64,000 bases of DNA. Origin: an uncultured Hyphomicrobiales bacterium (GTDB taxonomy: Bacteria > Bacteroidota > Ignavibacteria > Kapaibacteriales > UBA2268). The DNA is taken from contig CAZCHH010000003.1 in NCBI GenBank assembly GCA_964498585.1, positions 9,333-73,332 of the forward strand, read 5' to 3'. The notes below the pieces were generated by a model. That model searched no databases and was not told the origin of the DNA. It worked only from the letters and a program-made list of their open reading frames with translations. The position numbers and the translations under genes are program-made. Of the stretch, positions 10,374-61,075 are shown in pieces. Each line of letters begins with the position of its first letter. Within the stretch, counting starts at the first letter, position 1.

Positions 10374-11477
10374 TTATTTCTTTATGAACTCAACTCTTCT
10401 GTTTTTAGCTTTATTTTCAACAGATGTATTTGGTTCTATTGGTTCTGATTGCCCCTTTCCGTCAGTATCAATTCTATCTGAAGCAATACTAAATTCACTT
10501 ATAAGAGCATTTTTCACATTAGCAGCTCTTCTTTTAGACAAATCTAAATTGGATTTTTCATTTCCGTCGCTATCGGTATGCCCTACAACAATTATTTTCA
10601 AATCCGGATTGTCTTTTAAAATTGTAGCAATTTCTTTTAATGCACCATAAGATTCTGGCTTAACTTTGTCTCTGCCACTATCGAAATAAATGCCATAAGA
10701 GATAATTTTCCCTTCGGTTAAAAGCTTGCTTCTGTTGTCTTCACTTGCGTCTGCAACTCTGAAATTAGACATATATACCAAACAGCTATAACCAGTAAAA
10801 ATTCTGAATTGTCTTATTTTTGCATTCGGAACAAAAGCACGTTGGACATCGAAAACTTTGGTTTGGTTTACGTATAATCGCATACGGGTGTTTTGAATCC
10901 AAATAGAAATATGAGCAACTTCCCCTTTTTTAATTCGAGCTTCAGATTTCGTATTTTGTCCGTCAAAATCTTTATTGTTGGGTGCATCATAAGCTCTAAA
11001 AAAAGCACCTTCGGTTGGAGTATCTTCCAAAACCAAAGAGAATTCAATACCACATTTACCCGGGCAAGTAATATTAGCATATAAATCTGGGTCTTCTTCG
11101 TTTAACTCGAAAAGAGTTATGATAGATTCACAGCCGGTTTCTTCTTTGTCATTGAAAAAAACATCAAATTCAATAGTAAAATTTTTATCAACTTTTAAGC
11201 CGTCAAGTAGATAAAAATTTGCTTCTTCATTCATCATTAGCCATTTGCCGGGGAAAAGATTTGTTTGGATAACCTCGCCTGATGAATTAGTATTCCAGGA
11301 AATCGGGAAATCTCCTATTGCAGTTTCGCTGAAATCATCGAAAAACAATACTTTGTTTCCAGGAACGAAATCAAACTTTGAATAAGTTTTTAAATCTTCT
11401 GTTTGAGCGAAGATATTTACGCTAAAAAAAATGCTAATAAATAGCATAATAAAAAAAATCACGTGTTTTTTAATCAT
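10374..11477 (-). CDS. OmpA-family outer-membrane protein
   Basis: Signal peptide plus a C-terminal OmpA-like peptidoglycan-binding domain ('LKIIVVGHTDSDGNEKSNLDLSKRRAANVKNAL...RRVEF'). Confidence 0.8.
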   Translation of the reverse strand: MIKKHVIFFIMLFISIFFSVNIFAQTEDLKTYSKFDFVPGNKVLFFDDFSETAIGDFPISWNTNSSGEVIQTNLFPGKWLMMNEEANFYLLDGLKVDKNFTIEFDVFFNDKEETGCESIITLFELNEEDPDLYANITCPGKCGIEFSLVLEDTPTEGAFFRAYDAPNNKDFDGQNTKSEARIKKGEVAHISIWIQNTRMRLYVNQTKVFDVQRAFVPNAKIRQFRIFTGYSCLVYMSNFRVADASEDNRSKLLTEGKIISYGIYFDSGRDKVKPESYGALKEIATILKDNPDLKIIVVGHTDSDGNEKSNLDLSKRRAANVKNALISEFSIASDRIDTDGKGQSEPIEPNTSVENKAKNRRVEFIKK

Positions 11478-11761
11478 ATTTCTCTACTCATATTATTTAA
11501 CAAAACAATTAGAAATATTGATTCAATATGAATCATTCATCTTTTTAGCAAATATAGTAAAATTTTTCAATAAATTTAAATTTTTTGATATTTTTTCTTA
11601 TACAAATTCCAATATAAAATGTCATAAATAATATTAATATATGAATTTACATTCTGACATCTGTTAGATTGTAAAATATAATGATGACAAATCAATTTAA
11701 AAAAAGGTCTTCATTTATTGTGATATAAGGAATGATGTTTTTAAATTCCCTTAACTCATTC

Positions 11762-13069
11762 TTAACTCATTACTCTTCGCCAAAAATCTGATGAAAATTT
11801 CGGGTCAATATATTCTGAAAATTCTTTCCAGTTAGGATAAAACTTTTTGAAATCTTCTCTCTTCATTCTTGCATCTTTTGCCGGATAAAGCACCCCACCG
11901 GCATTAACTACCAATTCATCTAATTCATCGCAAAGTGATAAAGTTTTTTTATTACTTAAAGGAAAATCAATAGCAAGAGTAATTCCCGGTCTTGGAAACG
12001 ATAGCATTCCAGGTGATTGTATTTCACCAAACGTTTTTAGAACTGTTAAAAATGATGAAATACCAGATTTTGCTATGAATTTCATAATTTTTTTCAGATT
12101 ATTCAAACCATTTTTGAATGGTATAACAAATTGATACTGAACAAAACCACTTTTGCCATACATTTTATTCCAGTTTAATATTGCATCTAAAGGATAGAAA
12201 AAATCGTTGTAATCAACAATTTGCCTTTCAGTAGGATTTAATTGCTTATTAAAATAAAGCATATTGAACGCATTTACTGAAGCTTCATTAATGAAATTAA
12301 AATTGAAAGGAAATGGAATAGAATTAATTTGCTTTTCTTTGGGAATAGAATGAATTTCAGGATTAGCGTGATTTCCTCTGTTAAACAAGCCGCGACCAAG
12401 CCGTCCGCCAGTAGCAGTGCAATCAACCCATGCAACTGTGTAATCATAATTCTTTTCAGAATCTTTGTTAATTTCAAAGAACTCTTCTAAAGAATCAAAT
12501 TTAATACTTTCCATTGCAATAAATGGAGAAGTGCACTTTTTTATATTAAATTCAGCCCAGGTAATTAAGCCGGTAAGACCTAATCCGCCAATAGTAGCTG
12601 CAAACATATCAGAATTTTCATTTTTTGAGCAAATCATTTTCTCACTATTTGAACGAACGAGTTCAAATTGCTTTACGTTGCATCCGAAAGTGCCGCTTAT
12701 ATGATGATTTTTCCCGTGAACATCGTTACCAATAGCACCACCTACGGTGATATGTTTTGTTCCCGGAGTGGAAGGAAGAAAATACCCGTAAGGGATAATA
12801 AAATCTAAAATGGAAGCGAGTGTAGCTCCACTTTCACAGCGAAAAATTGATTCTTCTTTATCAAAACTTATAAAATGAGAGAGCAAATGAGTATCTAAAA
12901 TAGTTCCACCGCTATTTTGACAGCTGTCGCCATAGCTTTTACCAAATCCGAAAGGAAGGATTGAATTTGAAAATTTATTAAAATCGGGTAAATTACTAAT
13001 CCATTTTAAAAAAATAATTTCTTCTGGCGAGTGTTCGGGATACAATCCCCACGATTGATGTGTTTTCAT
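11762..13069 (-). CDS. FAD-binding oxidoreductase, DprE1-like (decaprenylphosphoryl-beta-D-ribose oxidase family)
   Basis: N-terminal PCMH-type FAD-binding region ('GFGKSYGDS...ITVGGAIGNDVHGKNHH'). Size is about 435 aa. It is co-operonic with UbiA and HAD genes, with a 4-nt overlap to UbiA. Confidence 0.65.
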   Translation of the reverse strand: MKTHQSWGLYPEHSPEEIIFLKWISNLPDFNKFSNSILPFGFGKSYGDSCQNSGGTILDTHLLSHFISFDKEESIFRCESGATLASILDFIIPYGYFLPSTPGTKHITVGGAIGNDVHGKNHHISGTFGCNVKQFELVRSNSEKMICSKNENSDMFAATIGGLGLTGLITWAEFNIKKCTSPFIAMESIKFDSLEEFFEINKDSEKNYDYTVAWVDCTATGGRLGRGLFNRGNHANPEIHSIPKEKQINSIPFPFNFNFINEASVNAFNMLYFNKQLNPTERQIVDYNDFFYPLDAILNWNKMYGKSGFVQYQFVIPFKNGLNNLKKIMKFIAKSGISSFLTVLKTFGEIQSPGMLSFPRPGITLAIDFPLSNKKTLSLCDELDELVVNAGGVLYPAKDARMKREDFKKFYPNWKEFSEYIDPKFSSDFWRRVMS

Positions 13070-13971
13070 AAAGTTGCTAAAAATAGAATTATGGCAGAAA
13101 TAAAACCTAAAATATAAGTTAATCTATCTTTCAGAAAAAATGAAACTGGGTCGTCAATAAGTTGTTTCCTTGAAGCAAGAAACCACATACGCATAATCCA
13201 AAAAAGAGCAAAAACAGCAACTATCCAAAGTAACTCTGGTTTTGAATATAATGTATCTTCATTTTTACTAATTAAACCATTTGCGCTCTTGCTATTAATA
13301 TATAAAGTCAGAACAAGCACCGATAGGAAACCTGTTGTAATTCCTATTTGATGCATTATGCTTAAATCCTGAACAGTGTAACCTCTTCGCCTCGCTTCTA
13401 TCCCATTGTTATCTTTTATTATATTAAGTTCTGCGTACCTTTTTATTGTTGCAATACTTAAGAAAAAGAATATAGAAAATTCTGTCAGCCATATCGAAAT
13501 AGGAATGTCAACAGTATAAGCACCAGCCATAATTCTTAAAGTATATAAAAACGAAAGTACAATAATATCAATTATATATATTTTCTTTAATATTAAAGAG
13601 TAAAGAGTTGTGAGTGTTATATAACTGATTAAAATAACTATAAATTCAATATTTAAAGCAATAAGAGCAATTCCTAAACTAATTGTAAAGAAAAGCGGAG
13701 CAATTACATATCCATAAGAAATTGGAAGTTTTCCAGATGCAAATGGTCTGTTTTTCTTTGTTGGGTGATTTCTATCAGACTCAATATCTGCGATATCGTT
13801 AATAACATAGACGGCAGAAGCAGCTAAACTAAATGAAATAAATGCTAAAAACAGGTTAAATATTGAATAATAGTCTTCTATTCTATGAGCCATTATAAGT
13901 GGTAGAAATAGCAAGAAGTTTTTTACCCACTGATAAACACGTATTTGCCTGATAAATAATTTTAATTGCAT
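13066..13971 (-). CDS. UbiA-family prenyltransferase (decaprenyl-phosphate phosphoribosyltransferase-like)
   Basis: Polytopic membrane protein with the UbiA motif 'NDIADIESDRNHPTKKNRPFASG'. Confidence 0.8.
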   Translation of the reverse strand: MQLKLFIRQIRVYQWVKNFLLFLPLIMAHRIEDYYSIFNLFLAFISFSLAASAVYVINDIADIESDRNHPTKKNRPFASGKLPISYGYVIAPLFFTISLGIALIALNIEFIVILISYITLTTLYSLILKKIYIIDIIVLSFLYTLRIMAGAYTVDIPISIWLTEFSIFFFLSIATIKRYAELNIIKDNNGIEARRRGYTVQDLSIMHQIGITTGFLSVLVLTLYINSKSANGLISKNEDTLYSKPELLWIVAVFALFWIMRMWFLASRKQLIDDPVSFFLKDRLTYILGFISAIILFLATL

Positions 13972-13972
13972 A

Positions 13973-14527
13973 TTATTTAGTATATATTATTTCTTTGATT
14001 TTTGTTACTTTTTCTACTTTTTTTATTAAATGTTTTGACGGATTAACTAAAATTGCTCCATTTGCTGCCTGCCATATCGGAATGTCAGCGTAACTATCGC
14101 CAGCATAGTCAAATCCCTTTTCTCCAAACATTCCCACTAATTTATCACGCTTGTTTTTTCCTTTTAAATTAAAATCCTTACGGCTTGATTCTACAATATC
14201 GAAAATTTGAAGGTGATTAGCAATTTGGTCTGCAATTTTTTTTGTGCTTGCAGTTGCCAATACTACTATTCTGTTTTCATCTTTTGCATTTTGGATGTTT
14301 TTTATAATTTTCTTATTAAATGGTAAATTAATAACAGGTAATGTTACTCTTTCGCTTATTTTTTCTTTAAAATTTTCTTTTCCTTTCAATAGCCAGAAAG
14401 GAAACAGGATTAAAACAACTGGATTCTTTTTTATTGACAAAAGAAAGGATTCAATTAAAGAATCAGTCAGAATTAAAGTATTATCCAAATCAATACACAA
14501 AGCAATTTTATTTTTTTCTTTTATCAT
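13973..14527 (-). CDS. HAD-superfamily hydrolase/phosphatase
   Basis: N-terminal HAD motif I 'ALCIDLDNTL' and a C-terminal 'GDSYADI' motif. It lies 1 nt from the UbiA gene. Confidence 0.6.
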   Translation of the reverse strand: MIKEKNKIALCIDLDNTLILTDSLIESFLLSIKKNPVVLILFPFWLLKGKENFKEKISERVTLPVINLPFNKKIIKNIQNAKDENRIVVLATASTKKIADQIANHLQIFDIVESSRKDFNLKGKNKRDKLVGMFGEKGFDYAGDSYADIPIWQAANGAILVNPSKHLIKKVEKVTKIKEIIYTK

Positions 14528-14574
14528 AGTTAAAAAAAGTAGTATATACTAATTTGTTTTTATATTTAGAATTA

Positions 14575-14900
14575 TTGTCATTTCTAATCACGAGATAAAG
14601 CAATTACTTAATTTAAATTGAAATGACATCGTTAAATCCGTCATTCTGACGTATGTCAAAATCCATCTTATTATTATTCAAAGCTATTCAATTTTAACTA
14701 TTTCATTGAAGCATTTGGGCTTGCACAAATGAAACATGTTAGCAAGCTCACTTGCTTTTCCAATATGGATTCTGGCATACGCCATAATGACAAGAAAAGA
14801 TGTCATTTCTAATCACGAGATAAAGCAATTACTTTATTTAAATTGAAATTACATCGTTAAATGCGCCATTCTGACGTATGTCAGAATCCATCTTTAAAAA
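14575..14900. repeat. two ~97-bp direct repeats (14575..14672 and 14806..14900) flanking further palindromic elements (cattctgacgtatgtcagaatc; ttgggcttgcacaaatg; ggattctggcatacgccataatgac)
   Basis: The two copies are near-identical: 'gtcatttctaatcacgagataaagcaattactt(a/t)atttaaattgaaat(g/t)acatcgttaaat(c/g)cg(t/c)cattctgacgtatgtca(a/g)aatccatctt'. Confidence 0.85.
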
Positions 14901-15121
14901 TCAACTATCGTGTAAACCTGATGGTTGATATATATTTTTTCGGATATTAATCATAGGTTTTACTAACAACTAAAGACCAATAACATCGCTTTTTTACAAC
15001 CAAAACTTTGCGAAAGTTAAAATCTAAACTTTCTAAACTTTTTAAAATTTATATCTTTTCATTTAACTAAAGCTTTATTCAGGTAATTCAGAAAAACTAA
15101 GTTGAAATTAAAGATAAAGAT

Positions 15122-16171
15122 TTATTCATCATCACCTTGGAACCAGGTAACGCTTCTCATATCGTTATTGAAATTGGGATCATTCTTTTTCGAGCTAATT
15201 CTTTTCTTAAGTAATTCGCCGAATTGAGTTGCAGGATTATAACCATATACTCTTAACAAATAATTAAGTGCAATTGCTTCGGCAAGCACAGCTACATTTT
15301 TTCCGGTACTAATAGGTAAAACAATAGTAGGAATTTTTACTCCCATAATATCAGTTAAAGATTCTCTGTCACCGAGCCGTGTATATTCATCTTTTGAATC
15401 CCATTCTTCAAGTTCGACTAAAACTTCAACTCTTTTTTGGAAACGAACAGCTTTAATACCAAACATTTGACGAATATCGATTAATCCAACTCCCCGAATT
15501 TCCATAAAATGCTTTGCTAAATTTGATGAAGTACCCATTATAGTAGTATCACGCTTATTACAAAGGATTACGCTATCATCAGCAACTAACCTGTGTCCTT
15601 TTTCAATCAGCGCCAGAGCTAATTCGCTTTTACCAATGGCTGCTCGTCCGTGAAAAAGAATACCAACGCCAAACACATCAATTAAAGTTCCATGAGCCAC
15701 TTGCTGTGGTGCGAAATAGTCATCTAAATATTCTGATAAAAAAATAAATGTATGATTTGTAGTTTTATCAGTCCTGAAAATTGGCACTTTGTTTTCTTTA
15801 GCTATTTCAATTAGAAAATCATCAAAAGCATTGTTATTTGTTAAAACAATACAAGGAATTTTATTTTCTACTAAAGTTTGAAAAGATTTAATTCTCTTTT
15901 GCTTGGACAAACTATTTAAATAATATACTTCTGTATTGCCGAAAATCTGAACGCAGTTTCGACTATATTTCTCGTAGAAACCAGTTAATGCTAATTGAGG
16001 TCTATACAGACTCTTTTCAGATAAAAGATTATTAAGACCAGCATTTCCGGTTAAGCACTCATAGAACAAAGGTTCTCCTTTTAAGGAATCAATTCTGAGA
16101 GCAGGTTTCTTTATAGTTTCTGCTTTTAGTCTGTTTGACAATGTATCGGCAATATAATTTAAATTTTCCAT
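15122..16171 (-). CDS. hprK: HPr kinase/phosphorylase
   Basis: P-loop region 'FGVGILFHGRAAIGKSELALALIEKGHRLVADD' is the HprK signature. Confidence 0.85.
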   Translation of the reverse strand: MENLNYIADTLSNRLKAETIKKPALRIDSLKGEPLFYECLTGNAGLNNLLSEKSLYRPQLALTGFYEKYSRNCVQIFGNTEVYYLNSLSKQKRIKSFQTLVENKIPCIVLTNNNAFDDFLIEIAKENKVPIFRTDKTTNHTFIFLSEYLDDYFAPQQVAHGTLIDVFGVGILFHGRAAIGKSELALALIEKGHRLVADDSVILCNKRDTTIMGTSSNLAKHFMEIRGVGLIDIRQMFGIKAVRFQKRVEVLVELEEWDSKDEYTRLGDRESLTDIMGVKIPTIVLPISTGKNVAVLAEAIALNYLLRVYGYNPATQFGELLKKRISSKKNDPNFNNDMRSVTWFQGDDE

Positions 16172-18824: not shown

Positions 18825-19646
18825 ATGAAAAAAATACAAATATATACTATCATCTTTTGGATTGCATCTGCTATTTTGACCTTTGCTATTTCTTATTATC
18901 AGAAATTAACAGGTCCTACATATCCTGTTAATGCAGAAATTGAAATTAATGGTACTGAAGTAAAAAGCATTCTTCCACGCTCTCATCCCGGCGAGGGGGG
19001 GGCGGTCGTTAACGTGTATGCACCAAACAAATCAATTATAGCCGAAATGAAGTTCAAACGTTACAAAAGCTATGACGATTGGACAACGGTTGAACTTACT
19101 CGAACTGGAGATACATTATTTACTGAAATTCCTCATCAACCTCCTGCCGGAAAAGTTGAATATATTATTTATTTTACAGATGAAAACAATTTAAAAATTC
19201 CTTTTACTGAAAATCCGCTTATTATTCGCTTCCGAGGTGATGTTCCAGCTGTTTGGATGATTTCGCATATAGTTTTTATCTTTGCTGCATTTATGCTATC
19301 ATTTAGAACCGGCTTTGAAGCGTTTTTCTTACGCGATAATACTTATAAGCTAACGATTTATACTGTAGTATTCCTTATTCTTGGCGGTTTGATTTTCGGA
19401 CCAATTATGCAAAAATATGCTTTCGATGCTTTCTGGACTGGCTGGCCCTTCGGAAATGATTTAACTGACAATAAAACTTTTGTTGCTTTGATATTTTGGT
19501 TAATTGCCTTATGGAAGCTTCATAAAAACCGAAATAATACAAAATGGATTATTATTGCAACTATTGTGATGATTATTGTCTTTTTAATTCCTCATAGCAC
19601 TTTTGGTTCAGAAATTGATTATATAAAAATTGAGCAGGGAAAATAA
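18825..19646 (+). CDS. hypothetical integral membrane protein; contains a G8 homopolymer at 18995..19002
   Basis: N-terminal TM helix, an extracytoplasmic segment, then four predicted TM helices. It starts 3 nt after the peptidase gene. Confidence 0.6.
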   Translation: MKKIQIYTIIFWIASAILTFAISYYQKLTGPTYPVNAEIEINGTEVKSILPRSHPGEGGAVVNVYAPNKSIIAEMKFKRYKSYDDWTTVELTRTGDTLFTEIPHQPPAGKVEYIIYFTDENNLKIPFTENPLIIRFRGDVPAVWMISHIVFIFAAFMLSFRTGFEAFFLRDNTYKLTIYTVVFLILGGLIFGPIMQKYAFDAFWTGWPFGNDLTDNKTFVALIFWLIALWKLHKNRNNTKWIIIATIVMIIVFLIPHSTFGSEIDYIKIEQGK

Positions 19647-19870: not shown

Positions 19871-22800
19871 CTAATCCATCTGTAATAATTTATCAATTCT
19901 TTCCATAGTTTGCAAAGTAAATTCTAAAACGTTTATAACATTAATAAAATGCTGCAAATCACCAACAGTTAAAGAATGGTTTAGTTTTTTCCGCTCTGAA
20001 AGCCATTTTTCTAAAACCTGATAGCCACCAACTTTATATTCCCAAATCTCTTTAGGAACATTACTGAAATATCTGTTTTTATTGAAATAAATTCTATTGT
20101 TCTCATATTTTATTGAATCAACTTTAAAATTGTCGGTTTCACCTTCTGAGCGGCAATTCACAGAAACAGGGAATTTCTTTAAAAGATGAGCATTGATCAA
20201 TTCAGTCCCGATATTTGATAGTTCCAAAAACAATTCTTCATTATCAACAAAAGGAACACGCGGAAAATCTATTCTTAAAAATTCATTATATTTTTCTCTG
20301 AAATTTGGGCTGTGCAAAACTGCATAAATATAAGCAAATACCTGCTCCGGTGAATAAGCATTTTTATATTTATTTTTAATGAAATGCCTGAATTCCTTTG
20401 TAAAATTGTCCCTTTTTCCTTCCTGATTAAAAAGGAAATCGTTACCGTTAGAAATATAGTTTTTATCAATATATAAATACAGAGGAAAAAAATTAGTTGA
20501 TTCTTTTGTGAATCCAATATCACCAATAAATTCAGTTACAAAAATATGCTTCCATATATTTGTTTTTATTTGTCTTGGAATTGCAAGTGCAACAGAACCT
20601 TTTAAAATATGCTGCATAACATTAAACCTGTTAGTTCCTGGTTCAATAAAATCAAAATCGTAATATAAAAATCTTTTATCAAAAGGGCGATAATGATAAT
20701 CAATAATTTTTTCTTTGTTAAAATGCCCTTTTTCAAGAACCTTTTTTATTTTCCAATCTCTTGTATCATTTAAACCTAATTCTCTGTTTATTTCACTTTT
20801 ATCTAATTTCAAAAAAGTAGTAATTCTTTTTTCAATTAATTCTTTTTGCAGAGCTATTAAAAACTTGTCCCGATGAGTTTTTACTCCACTTGATTGAATT
20901 TTAAAAATTTCGTCAATTTTATAACCCTTTTTATATTCATCTCTATTAGTCCAATTCTTTTTTACAAAAAAATAAAATTCATCGTTAGGAAAAATTTGAT
21001 TCCATTTTACTGTTCTTAATGAATTGTTCCATAAAAACTCATATTTGCTTTTTTTAGTTCCAAATAAATCATAGTAATTAACAGTGGATTCATTGCTTTT
21101 ATTTGGATTCTTAATAAATAAAGAAATACAAACTCCCTGCATAATTTCAAAAACATTTTCATCTTTTGTTCCATCAGGAGATTTTTCACCGATTCTTGAA
21201 CTACCATGCAGGTTCATAATATAAATTTCATTAAACGTTTTCATCAACTCCAGTCTCATTCCTTTATGAATCAGACCATCAATATATGAATTATTTGATA
21301 TTATCCCTATTACACCGTTTTTTACATTTTCCATTTTCCAATGAGCAAAACGAATAAATTTAATGTAATCGTCTGAAAGTGGTTGAATATTCTTTTCATT
21401 TCTCACTGCTTCTTTATAAGTAATCATTTTTTCATCTGTAATAAAGCCGGCTTTGTTTTGACTGCTAACTGAGTAAGGAGGATTTCCAAGAATAACAAGA
21501 ATATCCTGATTCTTTATTCGGTTTGCTTCTTTACCTTCCTTCGAGAGGGCTGGCATAATTGGAAATGGCTGTGGCTCTTTATTTGTAAGTGTGTTTGTAA
21601 GAAAGATATTTATTCGTTTACTTTCGTCTAAAGAATAGCCAAGTTCTTTGATAAATTCAGTGATTTTTAATTGAGCAACGATATATGGAGCAACAAGTAA
21701 TTCAAATCCATAGAAATTATTAATTATTTGTTCATTTAATATTTTATTTACTGTTTGCCTGTCACCAAGCGTTTGTGCCTGTTCTAATGCAAGTTTGAAA
21801 GCGTTTAAAAGGAAAGTGCCGGTGCCTGTTGCAAAATCAAGCAAAGTAACTTTCTTATTGATTAAGCCATCGCTAAGTCCAAAAGTTACCTTTAAAATCT
21901 CTTCAATAGAACGAACGATAAAAGAAACTACCGGTTCAGGTGTATAATAAACACCTCGCAGTTCTCTTTGCGATTTGTCATAATTTGTAAGGAAATCTTC
22001 ATAAAAATAAATAAATGGGTCGTTGAATCCCTGGTCTTTGTTACGATAATCGGTAAATTCCTTTTTTATTGCAGTATAATCAGTTACTTTTAATATGTTA
22101 ATAATTTCATCTATTGCCCAGGTTATTTCTCTCGGAAAATCATCTAAACGATGGAATAATTCTTTAATTAAAGGAAAAGAATGGGGGAGAAGTGAAAATG
22201 CACTGCTTCTGTTAAGTTGTTTATGTGGTTCATCGCAGTTAAGTGCAGCTAAAAACAAAGAATATGTCAGTGTTTGAGCATAAATATCTGAAAAATATTG
22301 CGTTTCTAAAAGAGGAAGCAGCGATTCTTTGAACACTTCGTAAACTCCCTGCATAAGATTTGTTTCGTCTCTTTCCTTTTCCAATTCAATATAGCAGTAT
22401 TCCCTTAAAAAAGTAGCTTTTTCTGCAAGTTTAAAAGCAAGTGTTTCCACTTTGAAAATCGGCTCCGGCTCTGCTTCAAAAAATTGTTTTAAAAGCCGAG
22501 AAAGTTCTTCTGTTTTACTTTTTGCTAATTTTATTTCCTTTGATTTTAAATCTTCAACAGAGCAGAGTGTAGTATCAAAAACCACATCACCTTTTACAAG
22601 CAGGATAAAACGAAGATAATCAGTAAGAATAATATTATCGGAAAGTTGCTTATAACGTTCAATTTGCTCTGTATTAAGAGTTCTTTCCAAATCGGTGCCT
22701 AATTTTTTCGTTTCAAGCAAACCGATTGTTAATATATTTGGAGTAATTATTTTAAAATCGGGGCGCCCTTTTCCTTCAACCTGTGTTGGCTCGTGCTTAA

Positions 22801-22936
22801 TAATCAACTCACGGCTAATATTTTCACTTAAAAAACGATTAAGCATATTTTGCAAATATGTTCTGTATGAATGTTCCGAACTTTCACTATTCGAGACAAA
22901 CTCCTTTAATATACTATCAATGTATTCTTTAAACAT
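19871..22936 (-). CDS. single-polypeptide Type IIL/IIG restriction-modification enzyme (MmeI-like): N-terminal PD-(D/E)xK nuclease, gamma-class N6-adenine methyltransferase and C-terminal target-recognition region
   Basis: N-terminal 'GRPDFKII...LLETKK' (D..ExK), 'GVYYTPEPVVSFIV', motif I 'LLDFATGTGTFL' and motif IV 'LGNPPYSV'. At 1021 aa it is comparable to MmeI-family enzymes. Confidence 0.65.
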   Translation of the reverse strand: MFKEYIDSILKEFVSNSESSEHSYRTYLQNMLNRFLSENISRELIIKHEPTQVEGKGRPDFKIITPNILTIGLLETKKLGTDLERTLNTEQIERYKQLSDNIILTDYLRFILLVKGDVVFDTTLCSVEDLKSKEIKLAKSKTEELSRLLKQFFEAEPEPIFKVETLAFKLAEKATFLREYCYIELEKERDETNLMQGVYEVFKESLLPLLETQYFSDIYAQTLTYSLFLAALNCDEPHKQLNRSSAFSLLPHSFPLIKELFHRLDDFPREITWAIDEIINILKVTDYTAIKKEFTDYRNKDQGFNDPFIYFYEDFLTNYDKSQRELRGVYYTPEPVVSFIVRSIEEILKVTFGLSDGLINKKVTLLDFATGTGTFLLNAFKLALEQAQTLGDRQTVNKILNEQIINNFYGFELLVAPYIVAQLKITEFIKELGYSLDESKRINIFLTNTLTNKEPQPFPIMPALSKEGKEANRIKNQDILVILGNPPYSVSSQNKAGFITDEKMITYKEAVRNEKNIQPLSDDYIKFIRFAHWKMENVKNGVIGIISNNSYIDGLIHKGMRLELMKTFNEIYIMNLHGSSRIGEKSPDGTKDENVFEIMQGVCISLFIKNPNKSNESTVNYYDLFGTKKSKYEFLWNNSLRTVKWNQIFPNDEFYFFVKKNWTNRDEYKKGYKIDEIFKIQSSGVKTHRDKFLIALQKELIEKRITTFLKLDKSEINRELGLNDTRDWKIKKVLEKGHFNKEKIIDYHYRPFDKRFLYYDFDFIEPGTNRFNVMQHILKGSVALAIPRQIKTNIWKHIFVTEFIGDIGFTKESTNFFPLYLYIDKNYISNGNDFLFNQEGKRDNFTKEFRHFIKNKYKNAYSPEQVFAYIYAVLHSPNFREKYNEFLRIDFPRVPFVDNEELFLELSNIGTELINAHLLKKFPVSVNCRSEGETDNFKVDSIKYENNRIYFNKNRYFSNVPKEIWEYKVGGYQVLEKWLSERKKLNHSLTVGDLQHFINVINVLEFTLQTMERIDKLLQMD

Positions 22937-23311: not shown

Positions 23312-24322
23312 TTAAAACTGCACAAATCCCAATTTCTTATACACTTTTCTTAATGTTTTAAAAGCACGTTTTCTTGCTTTTTCTGCACCGGCAGTTAAAA
23401 GTTCCTCTAAATACTTTTTATTATTCATCAAATCAAGATATTTTTCTCTGATTGGCTTAACGTATTCGGCAACGGCATCAGCAACCTCACTTTTGAATAC
23501 GCCATAGCCCTTACCAGCAAATTCCTTTTCAATATCCTCAAAACTCATTTCTTTTGCAATGTGATAAAGCGTCATTAAATTTGAAATGCCCTGCTTTTCT
23601 TCAGACATTTTTACTTCGGAGCCGGAATCGGTTACAGCACGCTTGATTTTGCTTTTTATTTCCTCATCGGTATCGGAAAGGAAAATTGTTGCCTTGTCGT
23701 TATCATCGGATTTCGACATTTTTTTGTTTGGTTCCTGCAAACTCATAATCCTTGCACCGACAGGGGCAATATATGGCTCTGGAACTTTAAAAGTATCGGA
23801 ATAATGGAAATTGAAACGTTGAGCTAAGTTACGGGTTAATTCGAGATGTTGCTTTTGGTCTTCGCCAACCGGCACCAAATCTGCCTGATAGAGCAAAATA
23901 TCGGCTGCCATCAAAACCGGATAGGCAAAAAGTCCAACGTTTATGTTTTCTGCGTGCTGGGCAGATTTATCTTTAAACTGCGTCATTCGGCTACATTCAC
24001 CCATACCGGTAAAGCAATTAAGTACCCATGCAAGCTGGGTGTGCATCGGAACAAATGACTGTATAAATAATGTGCTGATATTTGGGTCAACACCGCAAGC
24101 GATAAAAAGGGCAGCAGTTTCAAGGGTTCTTCGCCTTAATTCTGCCGGATTTTGCTTAACAGTAATTGCGTGTAAATCGACAATAGTGTAAAAACATTCA
24201 TATTCTTGCTGTAGTTTAGCCCAGTTTTTTATTGCTCCCGTTAAATGTCCGATGTGCAGTTTTCCAGAGGGCTGTATTCCACTTAAAATTACTTTTTTTT
24301 CAATTTGATTTTTCTCTTCCAT
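23312..24322 (-). CDS. trpS: tryptophan--tRNA ligase
   Basis: 'GIQPSGKLHIGHLTGAI' (HIGH) and 'KMSKSDDN' (KMSKS). The ORF extends to 24358, but Met13 (MEEKNQIEKKVILSGIQPSG) gives the canonical N-terminus. Confidence 0.85.
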   Translation of the reverse strand: MEEKNQIEKKVILSGIQPSGKLHIGHLTGAIKNWAKLQQEYECFYTIVDLHAITVKQNPAELRRRTLETAALFIACGVDPNISTLFIQSFVPMHTQLAWVLNCFTGMGECSRMTQFKDKSAQHAENINVGLFAYPVLMAADILLYQADLVPVGEDQKQHLELTRNLAQRFNFHYSDTFKVPEPYIAPVGARIMSLQEPNKKMSKSDDNDKATIFLSDTDEEIKSKIKRAVTDSGSEVKMSEEKQGISNLMTLYHIAKEMSFEDIEKEFAGKGYGVFKSEVADAVAEYVKPIREKYLDLMNNKKYLEELLTAGAEKARKRAFKTLRKVYKKLGFVQF

Positions 24323-24418
24323 ATCTTTTCTTATTTTTGTTAAATTAATTCTTTGCAAATTAAATTTTTTATAGTTAATTTCAAAAATTATAGTAATTAT
24401 AATTTAAAAAATACTGAT

Positions 24419-28575: not shown

Positions 28576-28786
28576 TTTCATAGCTTCTGAATCTAGTGTA
28601 GTGATTTGTTAAAAGACTTACTATCTTGTTCATTCCGAACCCCCTGATAAAAAAGACTTTTATTTAAATAATGATGACATAAAGAGCTATCCCCCGCTGG
28701 CGGGGGACAAAGATGTCATTGGTAATCCCCTTAGAAAGCAAATGCTTTATTTAAATTGAGATGACAAAATTTTATACAGTCATTCT

Positions 28787-28862
28787 GAGCGCTGCGAAGA
28801 ATCCAGAAAAATTTCTTTAATCACTATTCTCTGGATTCTTCACTTCGTTTCGGAATGACAGT
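28787..28862. repeat. MITE-like element with perfect terminal inverted repeats (gtcattctgagcg ... cgtttcggaatgac) and internal inverted repeat (gaagaatccag/ctggattcttc)
   Basis: Direct reading. It is flanked by other family members (28640..28760: 'gatgacataaagagc', 'atgtcattggtaatcc'). Confidence 0.8.
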
Positions 28863-28939: not shown

Positions 28940-31900
28940 TTACTGGGAACTTTCTTTATTTTTTCCGATAACAGACATAATAATGCTGAACAATTCATTT
29001 TTTTCAATAGGTTTAGAAATGAAGGCATCGCAACCTGCATCAAGAGCTTCTTGCTTTTCGTCTAGATGTGAATAAGCAGTTTGAGCTATAATTGGTATAT
29101 TAGGATTCGAATTTTTGATTATTTTAGTAGCTTCAAAGCCGCTTAAGAGAGGCATTTTTAAATCCATAAGAACTAAATCGAATTTTTCTTCTTCAACTTT
29201 CTTTATAGCATCAAATCCAGTTTTCACCAAGGTAATCTGGACATTTTCATTTTTTAGTAACTGCTTTAAATAAAAATAATTAGTATTCTCATCTTCAACA
29301 ATAAGAATTTTCATTTGAGGAAGTCGAATTTTTTCTTTCTTTTCTTCACTGTTTTTTGGCATTATGTTACCTCCTTTGACGTAAAATAATGGAATACTTA
29401 AAGAAAATATTGAACCAACATTAAGTTCTGAATCAACAGATAAATCGAAATCCAAAAGCTTTGCAGTTTCTTTACAAATAGACAGACCAAGCCCAGTACC
29501 ACCAAATTTTGCATTTGAAAAAGCTTCATATTGCCAGAATCTTTCAAAAACTTTATCTATATATTCTTCATTTATACCAATTCCGGTATCTCTTACAGAT
29601 ATAATCAGCATATCTTCTTCAATTTTGAAAGCTAATTCAATTTCACCCTGTTTAGTAAATTTAATAGCATTATTCAATAAATTAATAATAATCTGATATA
29701 ATTTGTCTTTATCCGTAATCAGATATAGCTTCGATAATTCAAATGGTAAGTTAGAGATAAAATTAATTCCTTTTTCTTTAATTGTTTCACTATATAAAGA
29801 GTTAATATAATGAAACATTTCATCTAAAGAGAAGTTTGAAATATTTACCTTAGCCAGACCACTATCAAGGCGTGATATTTCAAGAACATCATTAACAATA
29901 GCCAGTAGTCTTTTTGAAGAGCTAATAATTAATTCAATATATTCATTTCTTTCGTCGTCAGTTAATTCGTTAAAATCCTGCAATAAATTAGAAAAACCGA
30001 CAATTCCATTCAGAGGAGTTCTAATTTCGTGAGACATATTTTGCAGGAAAGAGGTTTTTAATTTATCACTTTGTTCAGCTTTGTCTTTTGCGATTAGCAG
30101 TTCATTTTCCATTTTAATTCTATCAGAAAAATCAATACCAACGCCCATTAATAAAGTGCCTTCATTAGTATCAAGACGCTTGCCAATTATATGATAAGAA
30201 CAAATTTCACCGTCTTTGCGGATTAATCTAACGATACCTTGAGCTTCTCCTTTTTCAAGAGCAATTTTTATGGAATCCTGTAAGAGTTGTTTATCGTCAT
30301 CATATATAGAATTGAAAATGTTGTGAGCTCTAATAGTATCAGAATCCAACCCGACGAATCTTTCATTATTTTTATTGCACCTAATAATTTGCATATTAGA
30401 ATCGAACATAAAGAAAAGTCCGGGCAAGCTTTCAATCAGTTTGTCTGAAAAATATTTTTCATTTCTTAGCACCTCGTCATATTTTTCCATTTGAGTAATA
30501 AACCGGGCTTGCTGAACGTTTTGATAAGCAATATTAGACAACTGATTTGCTAAAGTAAAAAGAACCTGAGAAATCTTTTCAAATTCTTCTTTTGACATTA
30601 CTGGCACTTTGTGAAATGCTTCCAAGAAAAGATTTTTATCAACGCCAATATATTCTGCATATTTTGCCATATTTTCATCGGTTTGCGTTTCGTCTCGGAC
30701 TTGACCGATTAGCCAGTTAGCAATATGTTTTCCACCGACAGAAATACCTGCTCCGGCTTCCCAAAGTCCACCGCTAAGGCAGGGCTGAATTCTTGGACCA
30801 TCTAAAGAAATAACTCCTGATTCAGCATCAGATTTAATGCAGTTTTCAAGTCCTTTATCTGTTTTTCTAATTATATCTTTGCAAAGCGGGCAAAAATTGC
30901 TCGGTTGTGTGATAGAGCTTCCATCAGGATAAGTAATTAATGAAGCAACACCGGTTGCGTTAGCGAAATCATCCTGAAGTTTTTGAATTTCTTTTATATT
31001 AAATAAATCCTCAAATGTAATGTCTATGCTATCATTAATTGGTTGAGTTAATGCTATAATCCTTTTTTCAAGTGCTTCTTCTGCTCGCTTTTGTTTTGTA
31101 ATATCAATTACGGTCGATACCATCGAATCCTGTTCTGCCAAAGGAATATTTGCAACATTAATAAATTTAATATCACCATTTTTTGTATGAATTTTTAAAT
31201 TTTCCCAATGCATTCTGTTTTCATCTAATGATTTCATATCATTAGCTATTCTTGTTCTAATTTCACTCCTGTATTTTTCATCTGGAATAGCATTCATATA
31301 GAATTTATCAATATCACTTAAAATTTCTTTATTCCAGCCATTTATTTCTTCAAACTTATGATTGAAGTAAAAAACCTGATTATTGCTAATAGAATTAATT
31401 GCAATTCCAATAGGAAGATTATCCAAAACTGTTTGAATAAATTCATTCTTTTGTCTTAATTCTTCTTCATTCTTTTTCTGTTGAGTAATGTCGGTTGAAA
31501 TACCGCAGAGAGCAATAGGATTATTATTCAAGTCAAAAATTTTAGTTATTCTGCAATCTAAGATAATTTCTTCACCTTGTTTATTGTAATTAACAACTTC
31601 ACCTCTCCAGTGCCCATATTTCAGAGTATTTTCCAATATTTCATTTTGTGAAGCACCTTTTTGAATGTCATCACCAAACAAATTCACATGGGACCCAATG
31701 ATTTCATCTTTATTATAGCCGAGTAATTCGAGCTCTGCTTTGTTTATGTCAATAATGATACCATTCAAATCAGTTATAGTAACCTTATCCTGTATTTGAT
31801 TAATGACTAAAGATTTAAGATAAATTTGTTCTTCAGTTTTTTTCTTTTCTGAAATATCCCTAATAACGAAAACCATACCAACAGGTTGATTATTAATATC

Positions 31901-34900
31901 ATGAATCACATCGCCGTTTACTTCACATATTAACTCAAACCCATCTTCAAATCTTAATTTATATTCAATAATACCTTGAGGTTTATCAATCATTTTTTTT
32001 GCATTTTCGATAGCTCTTTCTTTATCTTCATCGGCAATAAAATCGAAAATATTTTTCCAATATACTCTTTCAATGGGTAACATATTGAATAATGGGAAGG
32101 AAGTTTCATTAATAAAAGTAATATGACCATTAATATCAGTCCTAATGATAATATCCGGAACTGTCATTATGAGTTTTCTGTGCAATTCTTCGCTATCTCT
32201 TAATGCTTCTTCAATTTGTTTTCTTTGATGAGTTTCTAAGCATAAAGAAATGAGGGAAGCAAGAGTTAAGGATAACTGAATTTCATCGGGCAACCATTTT
32301 CGATGCTGTCCGGTGTTTTCAAAACATAAAATAGCAGCAAGACGTCCCTGCGTCCAAACAGGAGCATCAAGCAATGATTTGGTATCTTTTTCAATAAAAT
32401 ATGATGAAGGGATTTGATTAGTTATCGGGTCTTCATATACGTTTTCGACAGCAATAATTCGCCCGGATTTATGTTCTTCAACATAATTTGGAAATTCTTT
32501 TGTAAACAATTTTAAACCTTTACTAAATGAGTCTTTTGATTTCTCATAAAGAGTTTTACAATACATTTCTGTATAATTTTGATTATAAATCCAGATACTT
32601 ACTCTTTCAGTATCTAACATAACAGAAGCTGTTTTTACAATTTTCCTTAAATTATCGCTAAATTTTCCGGAAACAAATTCTCCGTCTTTAATTAGTTCGG
32701 CAATATATGTGTTGAATTTTTGCTGACGAAAGTTATCTTCTATAATTCTTAGTTCTGTTTGCTTTCTTTCGGTAATGTCTCTCATTATTCCTAAGACCAA
32801 TAATAGTTCCTTTTCTTCAAGGACAACGGTGCTAACTTCAATTATCTTTAGTTCATTATTTTTACTGATTATTTCTATTTCATATAAGTTGCTAACTTCC
32901 TGATGAGAATATCTTGCTTCATATCTTTTTCTCATTAGTTCCTTACTTTTTTCAGTAAGCAATACATTAAAATCAAATTGAACGGAAAGCAATTCTTCGC
33001 GTGTATATCCGGTAATTTCGCAAAATCTCTCATTCACAAATTCATATTTTTTATCTCTAATTAAATAAATGCCGTCGAATGCATTTTCTACTAAACTTTG
33101 GAAACGTTTTTCGCTTTTCCTTACTTTTTCAATAACTTGTTTCTTCTCGGTAATATTTCTTATAATAGCTCCAAGCCCAACTTTAGCTGCTTTTAGTTTT
33201 ATTGGAAATTTGGTAACTTCAAATGTCTGATTAGCAACAAGTTCTTCAACTACAACTGTTTTTCCAGTCGATAAGGCAAGTTTATCACTATCCTTACATT
33301 TATCTGCTTCTGCTCTTTGCATTAACTGATAATCTGTTTTTAAAAGTATATCCTTTCTTTCTTTCTTTAAAAAATTACAATAAGCATCATTTGCAACAAT
33401 ATATCGAAGTGAATCATCTTTTACAAAAATAATATCAGTATTGGAGTTTATAAAGCGATTATAACGTTCTTCACTTTCACGCAATGATTCTTCTGTTTTT
33501 TTCCTTTCTGTTATGTCATGAATAACAGAGTAAAGCAATGGACGTTCGTTTATTACAATAGGTCCGCTATATACCTCGACATCTCTTAAAGAACCATCTG
33601 CTATAAGATGTTTAAAAATAAAACAATTTCTTTTTTCCTGCTGAGCCAAACTCATTTCATTTTGAACTTCTTTTTCGCCTAATATATTAATCTCAGAAAT
33701 TTTCTTTTGCAGTAGCTCTTCTTTACTCCATCTGTAAAATTTGACAGCGGCAGGATTTGCGTCAATTATTTCACCATTTTTTGGGTCAATAATCAGCATT
33801 ACAGCATGATTATTTTCGAATAAGCTGCGGTATCTTTCTTCACTGTCTTTTATTGCCAGTTCAGCAAGTTTTTGTTCAGTTATATCTGTAAATGTAATTG
33901 CAAAGTAACCTTTTTGGGGACAAAATGCTTTTATGTTATAGTATTTATTTAAGGTTTTTGAATGATTAATTAAATTTATAGATTTTCCAGTAAAAGCGAC
34001 TTCTTTAAAAATATTGACACGCGTATCTACTATGTTTGATAATGCTTCAGATGCTCTTTTTCCAATTAAATCTTCTTTTTTTACTCCGGAAATTTCTTCA
34101 AAAACTGAATTAATTTCAATAAATCTGTAATCAACTGGTTCATTATTTTCATCTAAAATAATTTCGTGCAAAGCAAAAGCTTCGTTCATATTTTCAAAAA
34201 GTGTTCTATACTTTTTCTCGCTTTCAATCAGAGCTTTTTCATTTTCTTTTAGTTTAGTAATATCACGGGCAACTGCAAAAATTACTCTTTCATCTGGATA
34301 AGGATAGATATTCCATGATAGCCATTTATATGTTCTATCTTTACATAAAAATCTAATACTATAATTCAATAAATCAATTTCATCAATAGTTTTTCCATAA
34401 ATATCATCTGGATGAATAAATTCTTTATATGGCTTTGAAAGAAGTGTTTGCAAATCCCAGCCGAGAGTTTTCTCCCAAGCCGGATTAAGGTGAGTAAAAA
34501 ATCCATCATAATTAGCAGTGCAAAGCATATCAACGCTAAAATTAAATACTCTGTCGCTTGCTTTAAGTTTTTCTTTAAGAATTATTTCTTCAGTTATATC
34601 GCTTGCAAATCCAAGTATAGTGTTATCAGTTATTTTTACAGCTTTTACTGACCAACTCCTGATTGAACCGTCTTTTAATTTAAAACGGAAATCTCCGGTT
34701 GCTTCGCCTTTTTCTAATATCCTTTGAAAGTGTTTTAATCCAATATCTAAATCTTCTTCATATACTATATCCCGTATATTTAATTTTATAAGTTCTTCCA
34801 GAGAATAACCAGACATTATCGCAGCTGAATTATTAATATTTATCAAATTTCCCTGATTGTCAGCTATAAAAACACCGTCTGGTGCATTATCAATATAGCT

Positions 34901-39609: not shown

Positions 39610-39830
39610 CTGAACCCCAAAATAAAGAAGACCTTTATTTAAAGGTTGATGACATAACTAAATTTGTGTCATTCTGACGGATGTCAGAATCCATTTTAAA
39701 AATAGTGTTTATAGGTCATTAGTTATTAGTCATTTGTATTTTTACTAACAACTAATGACTGAAAAGAACCATTTTCTTAATTATTTAAGAAAACAAAGAT
39801 GGATTCTGGCATACGCCAGAATGACATACA
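39610..39830. repeat. composite cluster of palindromic repeat elements (ataaagaagacctttatttaaaggttgatgacataa; cattctgacggatgtcagaatc; ggattctggcatacgccagaatgac)
   Basis: The same modules occur at 14640..14800, 45060..45300, 49600..49830 and 61170..61380. Confidence 0.75.
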
Positions 39831-39905
39831 AAGATGTCATTGGTACCAAATTAAAAAATCTCAAATCTTTTAAACAATTAATAAATTTAAATAATAAGGA
39901 AATTT

Positions 39906-45054: not shown

Positions 45055-45300
45055 GTAAGTATCATTCTGACATACGTCAGAATGACACTTTTAGTTATGT
45101 CATTTCTATTAAATAAAGGTCTCTCTTTATCTGGGGATTACCAATGACATCTTTACTTTAAACTTTACGAAAGTTAAGAAACTTCCGCAAAGTAAGAAGA
45201 TTAATACTTTCGTAAAGTTTCTTAAGTTTGCGAAAGTTTAAAATATGTCATCTCCATTTAAATAAAAGTCTTCTTTTATCTAGGGATTCGAAATGAAAAG
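45055..45300. repeat. composite palindromic repeat cluster (tcattctgacatacgtcagaatgaca perfect palindrome; aaataaaggtctctctttatctggggatt; ctttcgtaaagtt inverted copies)
   Basis: Direct reading. 'ctttacgaaagttaag...cttaactttcgtaaag' forms a long inverted repeat. Confidence 0.75.
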
Positions 45301-61050: not shown

Positions 61051-61075
61051 GTTGAACTTGGGAAGGAGTGGAAAC

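Follow-up and report, generated by a model that had tools for sequence, protein, structure and literature searches.

Three contiguous minus-strand genes in the window (the whole 64-kb stretch of DNA analysed) raise the question of whether the host, an Ignavibacteria-like bacterium, makes a lipid-linked pentofuranose donor, and whether such a pathway would be new for its lineage. The genes, all intact open reading frames (ORFs), encode a HAD phosphatase (13973-14527, 184 aa), a UbiA-family protein (13066-13971, 301 aa) and a FAD oxidase (11762-13069, 435 aa). In the ORF listing the oxidase and UbiA genes overlap by 4 nt (13066-13069), and the sequence of the HAD/UbiA junction reads TAA-t-ATG, i.e., a 1-nt gap; the first-pass annotation had described the same layout with identical coordinates. 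Close relatives assembled independently (L003/L008, L004, L005, L092 and L093) share the gene order HAD, UbiA, oxidase. Relatives on record matched at 99% on the HAD protein and at 88% and 84% on the oxidase; the exact sequence of the window oxidase had no entry on record. The title 'uncultured Hyphomicrobiales' borne by MAGs of the closest relatives (L008, L009, L014 and L025) was given no taxonomic weight, as it clashes with composition, T9SS domains and the oxidase tree.

The oxidase matched Pfam FAD_binding_4 (PF01565; 61 bits, 1e-16), a FAD-binding domain of VAO/PCMH type, and resembles solved DprE1 structures along nearly its whole length. Its score on the NCBIfam DprE1 model NF053785 was 360.1 bits (2e-107), below the equivalog cut-off of 500, whereas the next-best family model reached 50.7 bits and models of lactone and related FAD oxidases 32-51 bits. 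Residues 35-433 matched the DprE1 structures of M. smegmatis (4aut) and M. tuberculosis (4kw5 and others) at 244-250 bits; the next structure family in the PDB, cytokinin oxidase, followed at 43 bits. With 360 bits on the DprE1 model and no more than 51 on any other, the oxidase is, by homology, a DprE1-type FAD-dependent enzyme, predicted to oxidise the 2'-OH of polyprenyl-P-ribofuranose to a 2'-keto intermediate. The active-site residues of DprE1 (His132, Lys134, Gln336 and Lys418 in M. tuberculosis numbering) correspond to H118, K120, Q313 and K398 and were invariant in 14 relatives. Cys387, to which benzothiazinones bind covalently and which is typical of the drug-sensitive DprE1 of mycobacteria but dispensable for catalysis, is replaced by Ala366, an alanine invariant across the FCB-clade alignment, and Asn385 is replaced by Thr364.

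The UbiA protein (Pfam UbiA, 8e-20) aligned with positions 191-480 of NF006088 (PRK08238, the HAD-UbiA fusion family) at 351.1 bits (9e-105), just over the cut-off of 351. Actinobacterial DPPR-synthase equivalog models gave 159, 154 and 130 bits, short of their cut-offs of 207, 234 and 474, and the quinone and heme O models gave 41 bits (ubiA) and 40 bits (cyoE). Rv3806c was the sole match in the PDB (8j8j, 113 bits). In that enzyme, Asn73 and Asp77 bind Mg/PRPP, Lys28, Tyr70 and Tyr157 are ligands of the 5'-phosphate, Tyr138 is catalytic and Gln135 contacts the ribose (PMC10994848). Lys28, Tyr70, Asn73, Asp77, Tyr138 and Tyr157 correspond to K17, Y55, N58, D62, Y124 and Y143 in the window protein, and Gln135, the ribose O3 contact, to Thr121. 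A simple Kyte-Doolittle scan, approximate by nature, gave eight hydropathy peaks (about 8 TM segments), against about nine TM helices expected for the family. As a family assignment, the protein is an Rv3806c-like polyprenyl-phosphate 5-phosphoribosyltransferase (PPPRS) of the UbiA superfamily and not of the quinone or heme O type; it is predicted to convert PRPP and polyprenyl-P to polyprenyl-P-ribose-5-P.

The generic Pfam names UbiA and FAD_binding_4 would also fit a pair that has nothing to do with glycan donors, in which a prenyltransferase for aromatics (menaquinone, ubiquinone or heme O type) is teamed with an oxidase of the sugar-lactone or alditol kind. This pairing is barely credible, the score margins being wide enough to refute it in effect: scores were 32-51 bits on the ubiA, cyoE and lactone-oxidase models against 130-360 on the DPPR-synthase and DprE1 models, and the PDB matches were exclusively Rv3806c for one protein and predominantly DprE1 for the other. 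The family scores thus support the biochemical reading of the first-pass annotation, in which a UbiA phosphoribosyltransferase, a phosphatase and a DprE1-type oxidase yield a polyprenyl-phospho-pentose donor. Neither protein sided with the rival families that the annotation had named, the oxidase scoring 360 bits on DprE1 against 32-51 on lactone and related FAD oxidase models and the UbiA protein 130-159 bits on DPPR-synthase models against about 40 on UbiA/CyoE.

The HAD protein scored 22.6 bits on Pfam HAD, under the cut-off, and 187 bits (4e-55) on positions 8-185 of the 482 in NF006088. It aligned collinearly with the N-terminal part of the fused proteins of five related loci (L001, L002, L011, L012 and L089). 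HAD motifs I-IV are DLDNT (with D13 and D15 as the DxD nucleophile motif), LATAS, NLKGKNK and GDSYAD, and are conserved across homologs. A sequence search of the PDB returned no meaningful match; for the AF2 model (pLDDT 92.8), the best Foldseek matches were phosphoserine-phosphatase-type HAD enzymes. Homology thus identifies the protein as the stand-alone N-terminal phosphoribose-phosphatase (PRP) domain of the fusion family PRK08238, predicted to take the 5'-phosphate off polyprenyl-P-ribose-5-P. It is not covalently fused to the PPPRS module, as a TAA stop and a frame change separate the two ORFs. The HAD and UbiA genes of the window are the two halves of what is normally one fusion gene, a point that the first-pass annotation had missed, and in the window clade these halves are translationally coupled genes. 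The split is kept in five or more independent assemblies, where the ORFs are intact and the junction takes one of two forms (TAAtATG or an ATGA overlap). A stand-alone HAD homolog of a marine proteobacterium (P0395) adjoins glmS and glmU rather than a UbiA gene and is uninformative on the three-gene system.

Purifying selection acts strongly on all three window genes. Compared with relatives, dN/dS was about 0.10 for the HAD gene, 0.05-0.08 for the UbiA gene and 0.06-0.07 for the oxidase gene (0.05-0.11 across the three, at dS of about 1). These values bear on whether the module is a decaying remnant, its fusion broken, its reductase lost and its transferase absent nearby. The stop codon and frame change between HAD and UbiA would fit decay, as would the local lack of an SDR, a flippase and a GT-C enzyme. 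Nevertheless, decay is very improbable given the low dN/dS of every gene, the intact catalytic motifs and the conservation of the split across assemblies; pseudogenisation of the split gene was rejected on the dN/dS values and the conserved split.

The three genes probably constitute an operon whose products make a pentofuranose donor linked to polyprenyl phosphate, in the cytoplasm and in association with the membrane. We favour this reading because the families are assigned with large margins, the PRPP/Mg residues of Rv3806c and the catalytic residues of DprE1 are conserved, the four HAD motifs are present in what is confidently a HAD fold, and the HAD protein corresponds to the N-terminal half of PRK08238 fusions, one of which (ORF15) has been shown to make polyprenyl-P-Ribf. 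It is further favoured because an SDR and a fused HAD-UbiA gene neighbour the oxidase gene in related loci, purifying selection is strong and the sister genome L002 carries a distant SDR ortholog. Following transfer of phosphoribose to the lipid, the stand-alone HAD phosphatase would strip the 5'-phosphate to leave polyprenyl-P-ribofuranose, whose C2' would be oxidised by the DprE1-type flavoenzyme to a 2'-keto sugar; the basis for these three steps is homology and conserved residues. The remaining reactions would draw on proteins encoded outside the window: a DprE2-type SDR may turn the keto sugar into polyprenyl-P-D-arabinofuranose, a flippase may carry the donor across the membrane, and one or more GT-C glycosyltransferases may put the pentofuranose on an envelope glycan or protein. 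Several observations were counted against the donor operon. No DprE2-like reductase, flippase or GT-C enzyme was found in the 64 kb, so that the end product may be Araf, Ribf or another pentose; the oxidase (360 vs. 500 bits) and the UbiA protein (159 vs. 207 bits) fell under equivalog cut-offs and that of PRK08238 was barely reached; Gln135 of Rv3806c is a threonine; and we found no literature on decaprenyl-linked sugars in Ignavibacteria.

The mycobacterial decaprenyl-phospho-arabinose pathway comprises the UbiA protein Rv3806c, the PAP2 phosphatase Rv3807c, DprE1 (Rv3790) and DprE2 (Rv3791). The window genes share its reaction logic, with homologous UbiA and oxidase proteins (HMMER scores of 113 bits against Rv3806c and about 246 bits against M. 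tuberculosis DprE1) and conserved key residues. The differences are a HAD-type rather than a PAP2 phosphatase, a lipid that is presumably undecaprenyl rather than decaprenyl, alanine in place of Cys387 in the oxidase, the lack of an adjacent dprE2, scores under the NCBIfam equivalog cut-offs for the oxidase and UbiA protein, and a host that is a diderm FCB-group bacterium.

A parallel for the phosphatase is offered by Citrobacter, in which HAD-UbiA fusions make undecaprenyl-P-ribofuranose (Kelly et al., PNAS 2024, PMC11127046). The C. youngae fusion ORF15 converts PRPP to polyprenyl-P-Ribf, its HAD domain acting as the 5'-phosphatase, and the three-component O1/O2 system consists of this PRP-PPPRS fusion, a MATE flippase and a GT136 GT-C enzyme (PMC11127046). 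Set against ORF15 by description, the window likewise encodes a HAD-type phosphoribose phosphatase and a PRPP-using UbiA-type phosphoribosyltransferase, with the N-D-x-x-D-x-x-x-D loop and the HAD nucleophile Asp conserved. Unlike in ORF15, the PRP and PPPRS modules are separate, translationally coupled genes, and unlike in the O1/O2 systems, a DprE1-type oxidase gene comes next and no flippase or GT-C gene lies nearby.

The Citrobacter precedent suggests that polyprenyl-P-ribofuranose alone could be the donor, as in C. youngae O1, with the oxidase acting on another substrate; a characterised HAD-UbiA system delivers Ribf without an epimerase (PMC11127046), and the window has no reductase. We regard this as distinctly unlikely, given that the oxidase gene overlaps the UbiA gene by 4 nt, which couples the two in translation, that it accompanies HAD-UbiA in about 37 of 80 related loci spanning many phyla, and that it encodes a protein that keeps the DprE1 active-site residues and has no close likeness to other FAD oxidase families. 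DprE1/E2 homologs accompany those HAD-UbiA systems whose glycan contains Araf (PMC11127046).

A reductase gene was looked for in the window and its relatives. The first-pass annotation had seen no DprE2-like SDR in the window, and both searches bore this out. The Pfam scan gave no adh_short match in 44 of the 46 listed ORFs of at least 100 aa; the two ORFs outside it (14244-14552, plus strand, and 47573-48055, minus strand) both largely overlap scanned ORFs. Likewise, tblastn with four SDR queries from related loci gave no match at E ≤ 1e-3 in the 64 kb. Among 80 related loci, about 70 have a DprE2-like SDR gene directly 3' of the oxidase gene, and about 37 of these also have a fused HAD-UbiA gene directly 5' of it; the SDRs adjoining the oxidase reached 288-304 bits with the PRK07102 model and 175-182 bits with that of DprE2. 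In the window clade the reductase gene is probably unlinked from the oxidase gene.

If DprE2 has truly been lost in this clade, the 2'-keto product might be used directly, be transaminated or pass to a non-orthologous reductase, and the donor would carry a keto or amino pentose or some pentofuranose that is not D-Araf. Consistent with loss, no SDR adjoins the oxidase in the window or its close relatives (L003-L008 and L092), other loci without an adjacent SDR recur inside the FCB clade, and no SDR of L001, a complete genome that also lacks the adjacent gene, was among the top 120 SDR matches. However, an SDR gene is present in L002, the closest of the complete genomes that lack the adjacent gene: its product P0205 is a clear ortholog, 57% identical to the linked SDR of Ignavibacteria, and is encoded on the same chromosome at a distance of about 600 kb. 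An IS200-like gene is inserted between the oxidase and SDR genes in L089/L090, so simple unlinking does happen, and in L013 the SDR gene is displaced by about 5.5 kb. Absence in the window is, moreover, judged from 64 kb of the host genome. Loss is therefore unlikely. It is with low confidence that we consider whether the window clade, and possibly other Ignavibacteriota without an adjacent SDR, dispensed with the DprE2-type reductase, so that the oxidase would pass a 2'-keto-pentofuranosyl-phosphopolyprenol to a different finishing enzyme, for example a non-orthologous reductase or an aminotransferase; if so, the product would be a lipid-linked pentofuranose donor of a kind not yet described.

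With respect to partners downstream of the donor operon, a Pfam and hydropathy scan of the 64 kb gave no candidate MATE, GtrA, Polysacc_synt or multi-TM GT-C protein, and of the three-component set for extracytoplasmic pentofuranose glycosylation (PMC11127046) only the donor synthase is present. An AbgT transporter (61569-63110) and a sensor kinase are the only large polytopic proteins. A 273-aa membrane protein (18825-19646) and a 462-aa lipoprotein-like ORF (49854-51242) are not GT-C-like. In related loci, flippase candidates (GtrA-like, MOP-type and LPG_synthase_TM-type) and PMT_2 GT-C genes recur nearby.

A Gram-negative D-Araf system is known from P. aeruginosa PA7/Pa5196, whose type IV pilin cluster spans PsPA7_6245-6251 (Harvey et al. 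2011; bioRxiv 10.1101/2020.04.19.049825). Its pilin glycosylation requires homologs of Rv3806c, DprE1 and DprE2 (bioRxiv 10.1101/2020.04.19.049825), and the donor route also has a GtrA-like protein. As in the window, the transferase gene lies apart from those for the donor. The Pseudomonas system differs in its phosphatase, which has no HAD fusion, and in having dprE1 next to dprE2; the window, in turn, shows no link to tfpW or pilin. A module annotated by PGAP as UbiA (PRK08238), GtrA, FAD oxidoreductase and SDR (PRK07102) occurs on Rhizobium leguminosarum WSM1325 pR132503 and a Flammeovirgaceae plasmid. The window has the same families in the order UbiA then oxidase, its oxidase being 39-42% identical, and lacks the fused HAD-UbiA of the Rhizobium module as well as the adjacent SDR and candidate GT-C genes of both.

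The oxidase is encoded in the genomes of at least 595 species spread over many phyla, Ignavibacteria and Kapabacteria included, usually in the order HAD-UbiA, oxidase, SDR, and its family has thousands of members outside Actinobacteria. The first-pass annotation had considered the pathway unusual outside Actinobacteria and for this lineage. Neither view was upheld, because the pathway is experimentally known in Gram-negatives (PMC11127046; bioRxiv 10.1101/2020.04.19.049825) and the module is widespread, being common within Ignavibacteria and Kapabacteria. The three genes are an incomplete but ordinary copy of a known, widespread pathway and not a new one. Peculiar to the window clade are the split fusion gene and the non-adjacent reductase gene, both of which recur in independent assemblies.

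For the locus itself, the outcome is functional names for genes called 'HAD hydrolase', 'UbiA prenyltransferase' and 'FAD-binding oxidoreductase', with little significance beyond annotation, and the prediction of a pentofuranose, probably D-arabinofuranose or ribofuranose, on a surface glycan or protein of the FCB-group host. More broadly, the module of HAD-UbiA, DprE1-like oxidase and PRK07102-type SDR occurs in hundreds of species of many phyla, and its fusion can split and its reductase unlink while selection on the remaining genes persists. In Ignavibacteria the module is often linked to glf and a Wzx-like flippase gene, related members having a conserved cluster of wzx-like, glf, HAD-UbiA, dprE1 and dprE2 genes. 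With low confidence, this glf-linked cluster would point to an 'arabinogalactan-like' envelope glycan of Galf and Araf in a diderm FCB lineage; the linkage is a lead for envelope-glycan studies of the phylum.

Upstream of the operon, a 594-bp intergenic region (14528-15121, strand not assigned) separates the HAD gene from hprK and presumably contains the operon promoter; its membership of the system is suggested by position alone. A promoter scan of the operon region was uninformative, with 36 promoter-like sites against 30.6 expected, a terminator scan gave none that was convincing 3' of the oxidase gene, and an Rfam scan of 11400-15300 gave no family, its one match being a chance miRNA hit whose 26 bits fall far short of the gathering score of 100. 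A 94-nt repeat that is dispersed elsewhere occurs twice in the intergenic region, at 14576-14669 and 14801-14894.

The trio of minus-strand genes in the window is a partial, rearranged copy of a known and very widespread system. The ORF listing places a HAD protein (13973-14527, 184 aa), a UbiA protein (13066-13971, 301 aa) and a FAD oxidase (11762-13069, 435 aa) exactly where the first-pass annotation had put them. A single nucleotide lies between the stop codon of the HAD gene and the start codon of the UbiA gene (TAA-t-ATG), and the oxidase start overlaps the UbiA stop by 4 nt. The trio stands apart from both neighbours, hprK (15122-16171) and an OmpA-family lipoprotein gene (10374-11477), with gaps of 594 bp and 284 bp, respectively.

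The UbiA protein covers the C-terminal 290 positions of the 482-position PRK08238 model of HAD-UbiA fusion proteins and barely reaches its cut-off (351.1 versus 351 bits). It scored 130-159 bits against decaprenyl-phosphate phosphoribosyltransferase models versus ~40 bits against 4-hydroxybenzoate prenyltransferase and heme O synthase models, so a quinone or heme O prenyltransferase, the assignment that would have counted against a pentose donor pathway, is disfavoured. Only Rv3806c was matched in the PDB. All six Rv3806c residues named as binding Mg-PRPP and its 5'-phosphate (Lys28, Tyr70, Asn73, Asp77, Tyr138 and Tyr157; PMC10994848) are kept, while Gln135 is replaced by Thr.

The HAD protein matches PRK08238 at model positions 8-185 (187 bits) and has all four HAD motifs. 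Its AlphaFold model (pLDDT 92.8) has phosphoserine-phosphatase-type HAD enzymes as nearest structural neighbours. The fusion gene is broken precisely where a linker joins the HAD domain to the first transmembrane helix. Because the split recurs in independent assemblies of all close relatives (L003/L008, L004, L005, L092 and L093) with two kinds of junction, TAAtATG and an ATGA overlap, it is a true gene fission in this clade and not an assembly error. The dN/dS values of 0.05-0.11 against relatives for all three genes indicate that they are in use and that the module is not decaying.

The oxidase scored 360 bits against the NCBIfam DprE1 model, below the equivalog cut-off of 500 and seven times the score of the next family; grouping with lactone or alditol oxidases was not observed. 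Solved structures of mycobacterial DprE1 match it over nearly the whole length at 244-250 bits, whereas the next-best structure family reaches 43 bits. Four residues of M. tuberculosis DprE1 are kept in the alignment: His132, Lys134, Gln336 and Lys418. The position of Cys387, the benzothiazinone target of DprE1, is occupied by Ala in the window oxidase and in all 14 aligned relatives.

Comparable pathways have been described. In C. youngae, ORF15, an N-terminal HAD phosphoribose phosphatase fused to a C-terminal UbiA-type transferase, was shown biochemically to make polyprenyl-P-ribofuranose from PRPP, with the HAD domain taking off the 5'-phosphate; periplasmic use of this donor then depends on a flippase and a GT-C enzyme, and DprE1/E2 homologs accompany such systems for Araf-containing glycans (Kelly et al., PNAS 2024, PMC11127046). 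D-Araf glycosylation of P. aeruginosa PA7/Pa5196 pilin requires a GtrA-like protein as well as homologs of Rv3806c, DprE1 and DprE2 (bioRxiv 10.1101/2020.04.19.049825). Cultured bacteria with annotated genomes carry the module too: plasmid pR132503 of Rhizobium leguminosarum WSM1325 encodes a UbiA family prenyltransferase, GtrA, a FAD-binding oxidoreductase and an SDR followed by two large hypothetical proteins, and a Flammeovirgaceae plasmid encodes a decaprenyl-phosphate phosphoribosyltransferase, a FAD-binding oxidoreductase and an SDR.

The UbiA enzyme would convert polyprenyl-P and PRPP to polyprenyl-P-Ribf-5-P, the HAD enzyme would remove the 5'-phosphate to give polyprenyl-P-Ribf, and the DprE1-like oxidase would produce the 2'-keto intermediate, as predicted from homology and conserved residues. 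A reductase encoded outside the window would then yield polyprenyl-P-D-Araf, and a flippase and GT-C transferase(s), likewise encoded elsewhere, may deliver the sugar to a putative acceptor; relatives and the literature suggest these two steps. The mechanism for a polyprenyl-phospho-pentose donor proposed in the first-pass annotation is thus essentially right, given the family scores and the Citrobacter and Pseudomonas precedents. It is not new outside Actinobacteria, because both studies already describe the pathway.

Nor is the module unusual for the lineage. Oxidase relatives occur in at least 595 genomes (one genome per species scanned), and those at 48-61% identity include Ignavibacteria, Kapabacteria, Chloroflexota (Ktedonobacter, Dictyobacter, Anaerolineae), Acidobacteriota, Verrucomicrobiota, Nitrospirota, Myxococcota and many Gammaproteobacteria. 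One protein search returned at least 8000 matches, another at least 1677 cluster representatives at E ≤ 1e-30.

ORFs were called and clustered in 80 fetched loci, and SDRs were located by tblastn. An SDR of ~245 aa immediately follows the oxidase in ~70 of them; it meets NCBIfam PRK07102, with DprE2 as second-best model (175-182 bits). A fused HAD-UbiA protein (~480 aa) lies immediately upstream in ~37 of the 80. Genes that recur nearby encode GtrA-like proteins, LPG_synthase_TM 'flippase-like' proteins, NAD-dependent epimerases, Wzx/MOP-type Polysacc_synt proteins and PMT_2-type GT-C glycosyltransferases.

As previously noted, no DprE2-like SDR is present in the 64-kb window; tblastn found none downstream of the oxidase in any close relative. 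A Pfam and hydropathy scan detected no flippase or GT-C in the 64 kb. Loci without an adjacent SDR occupy several separate positions within the FCB clade of the neighbour-joining tree (L059; L010 with L001; L002 with the window clade). In locus L013 the SDR is encoded on the other strand, ~5.5 kb upstream. In L002, a complete 4.23-Mb genome sister to the window clade, ~600 kb lies between the oxidase gene and a solitary gene for an orthologous SDR (P0205), which shares 57% identity with a linked Ignavibacteria SDR. On a GWB2_35_12-type Ignavibacteria contig, an IS200-like gene (Y1_Tnp, faint match; L089 11474-11935, L090 11345-11935) separates the DprE1-like oxidase from the DprE2-like SDR, a snapshot of their unlinking. 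These cases show routes by which the reductase gene becomes unlinked. It is improbable that the window organism has no reductase and makes an end product other than Araf.

In Ignavibacteria relatives, glf (UDP-galactopyranose mutase) often directly precedes the HAD-UbiA and DprE1-like module (L002 6004-8531, L011 456-2965, L025 6018-8530, L089/L090 7321-8436). A Wzx/MOP-type Polysacc_synt flippase gene lies before glf in L002, L011 and L025, and a GH57 gene is frequently found further upstream. This linkage points to a conserved gene cluster for a furanose glycan (Galf plus pentofuranose) in these relatives, and glf with Wzx-like genes hints at furanose-rich glycans in the phylum; the window has no glf. 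PAP2 is the phosphatase type of mycobacteria (Rv3807c). Because a Kapabacteria MAG carries a PAP2-family phosphatase gene immediately upstream of a DprE1-like oxidase (L091 9029-9982), with no UbiA nearby, the phosphatase module appears interchangeable within the FCB group.

The window has a G+C content of ~30%, one of its proteins carries a T9SS C-terminal sorting domain, and the window oxidase clusters with sequences annotated as Ignavibacteria, Kapabacteria, Bacteroidota or FCB group. An uncultured bacterium of the Ignavibacteriota, or of a nearby FCB lineage, is therefore the most likely source. Oxidases of MAGs titled 'uncultured Hyphomicrobiales bacterium' (L008, L009, L014, L025) group with Ignavibacteria and Kapabacteria, and the labels of these records look unreliable. 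The closest MAG so titled has an 88% identical oxidase and the gene order of the window.

Upstream of the HAD gene lie two 95% identical copies (14576-14669 and 14801-14894) of a dispersed intergenic repeat with a ~94-nt unit containing the palindrome TTCTGACGTATGTCAGAA. Beyond this pair, at least six sites in the window match at 76-84% identity, some as inverted pairs, with copies at 28709-28788, 39633-39841, 45064-45158, 49592-49827 and 61155-61356; another copy occurs in relatives (L003/L008 124-198). The repeat belongs to no Rfam family, and its folding z-score is only about -1.5 to -1.8. Candidate identities are a REP/MITE-like element and a family of small RNAs. The first ~290 nt (upper coordinates) of a TonB-dependent receptor ORF (59077-61446, minus strand, TTG start) overlap the copies at 61155-61356, and its true start is probably further downstream.

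The window also encodes, on the minus strand, a Type ISP-like restriction-modification enzyme (Type_ISP_C and N6_Mtase; 19871-22936, 1021 aa), a separate N6_N4 DNA methylase (52793-54298, 501 aa) and a hybrid sensor kinase of 2324 aa (28940-35914) with 5TMR-LYT, many PAS, GAF, PocR, HisKA-HATPase and receiver domains. This one window further contains a pair of genes for class-I W/Y-type aminoacyl-tRNA synthetases (tRNA-synt_1b): the first (23312-24358, minus strand) presumably encodes TrpRS, and the second (42505-43719, plus strand) has TyrRS C-terminal domains.
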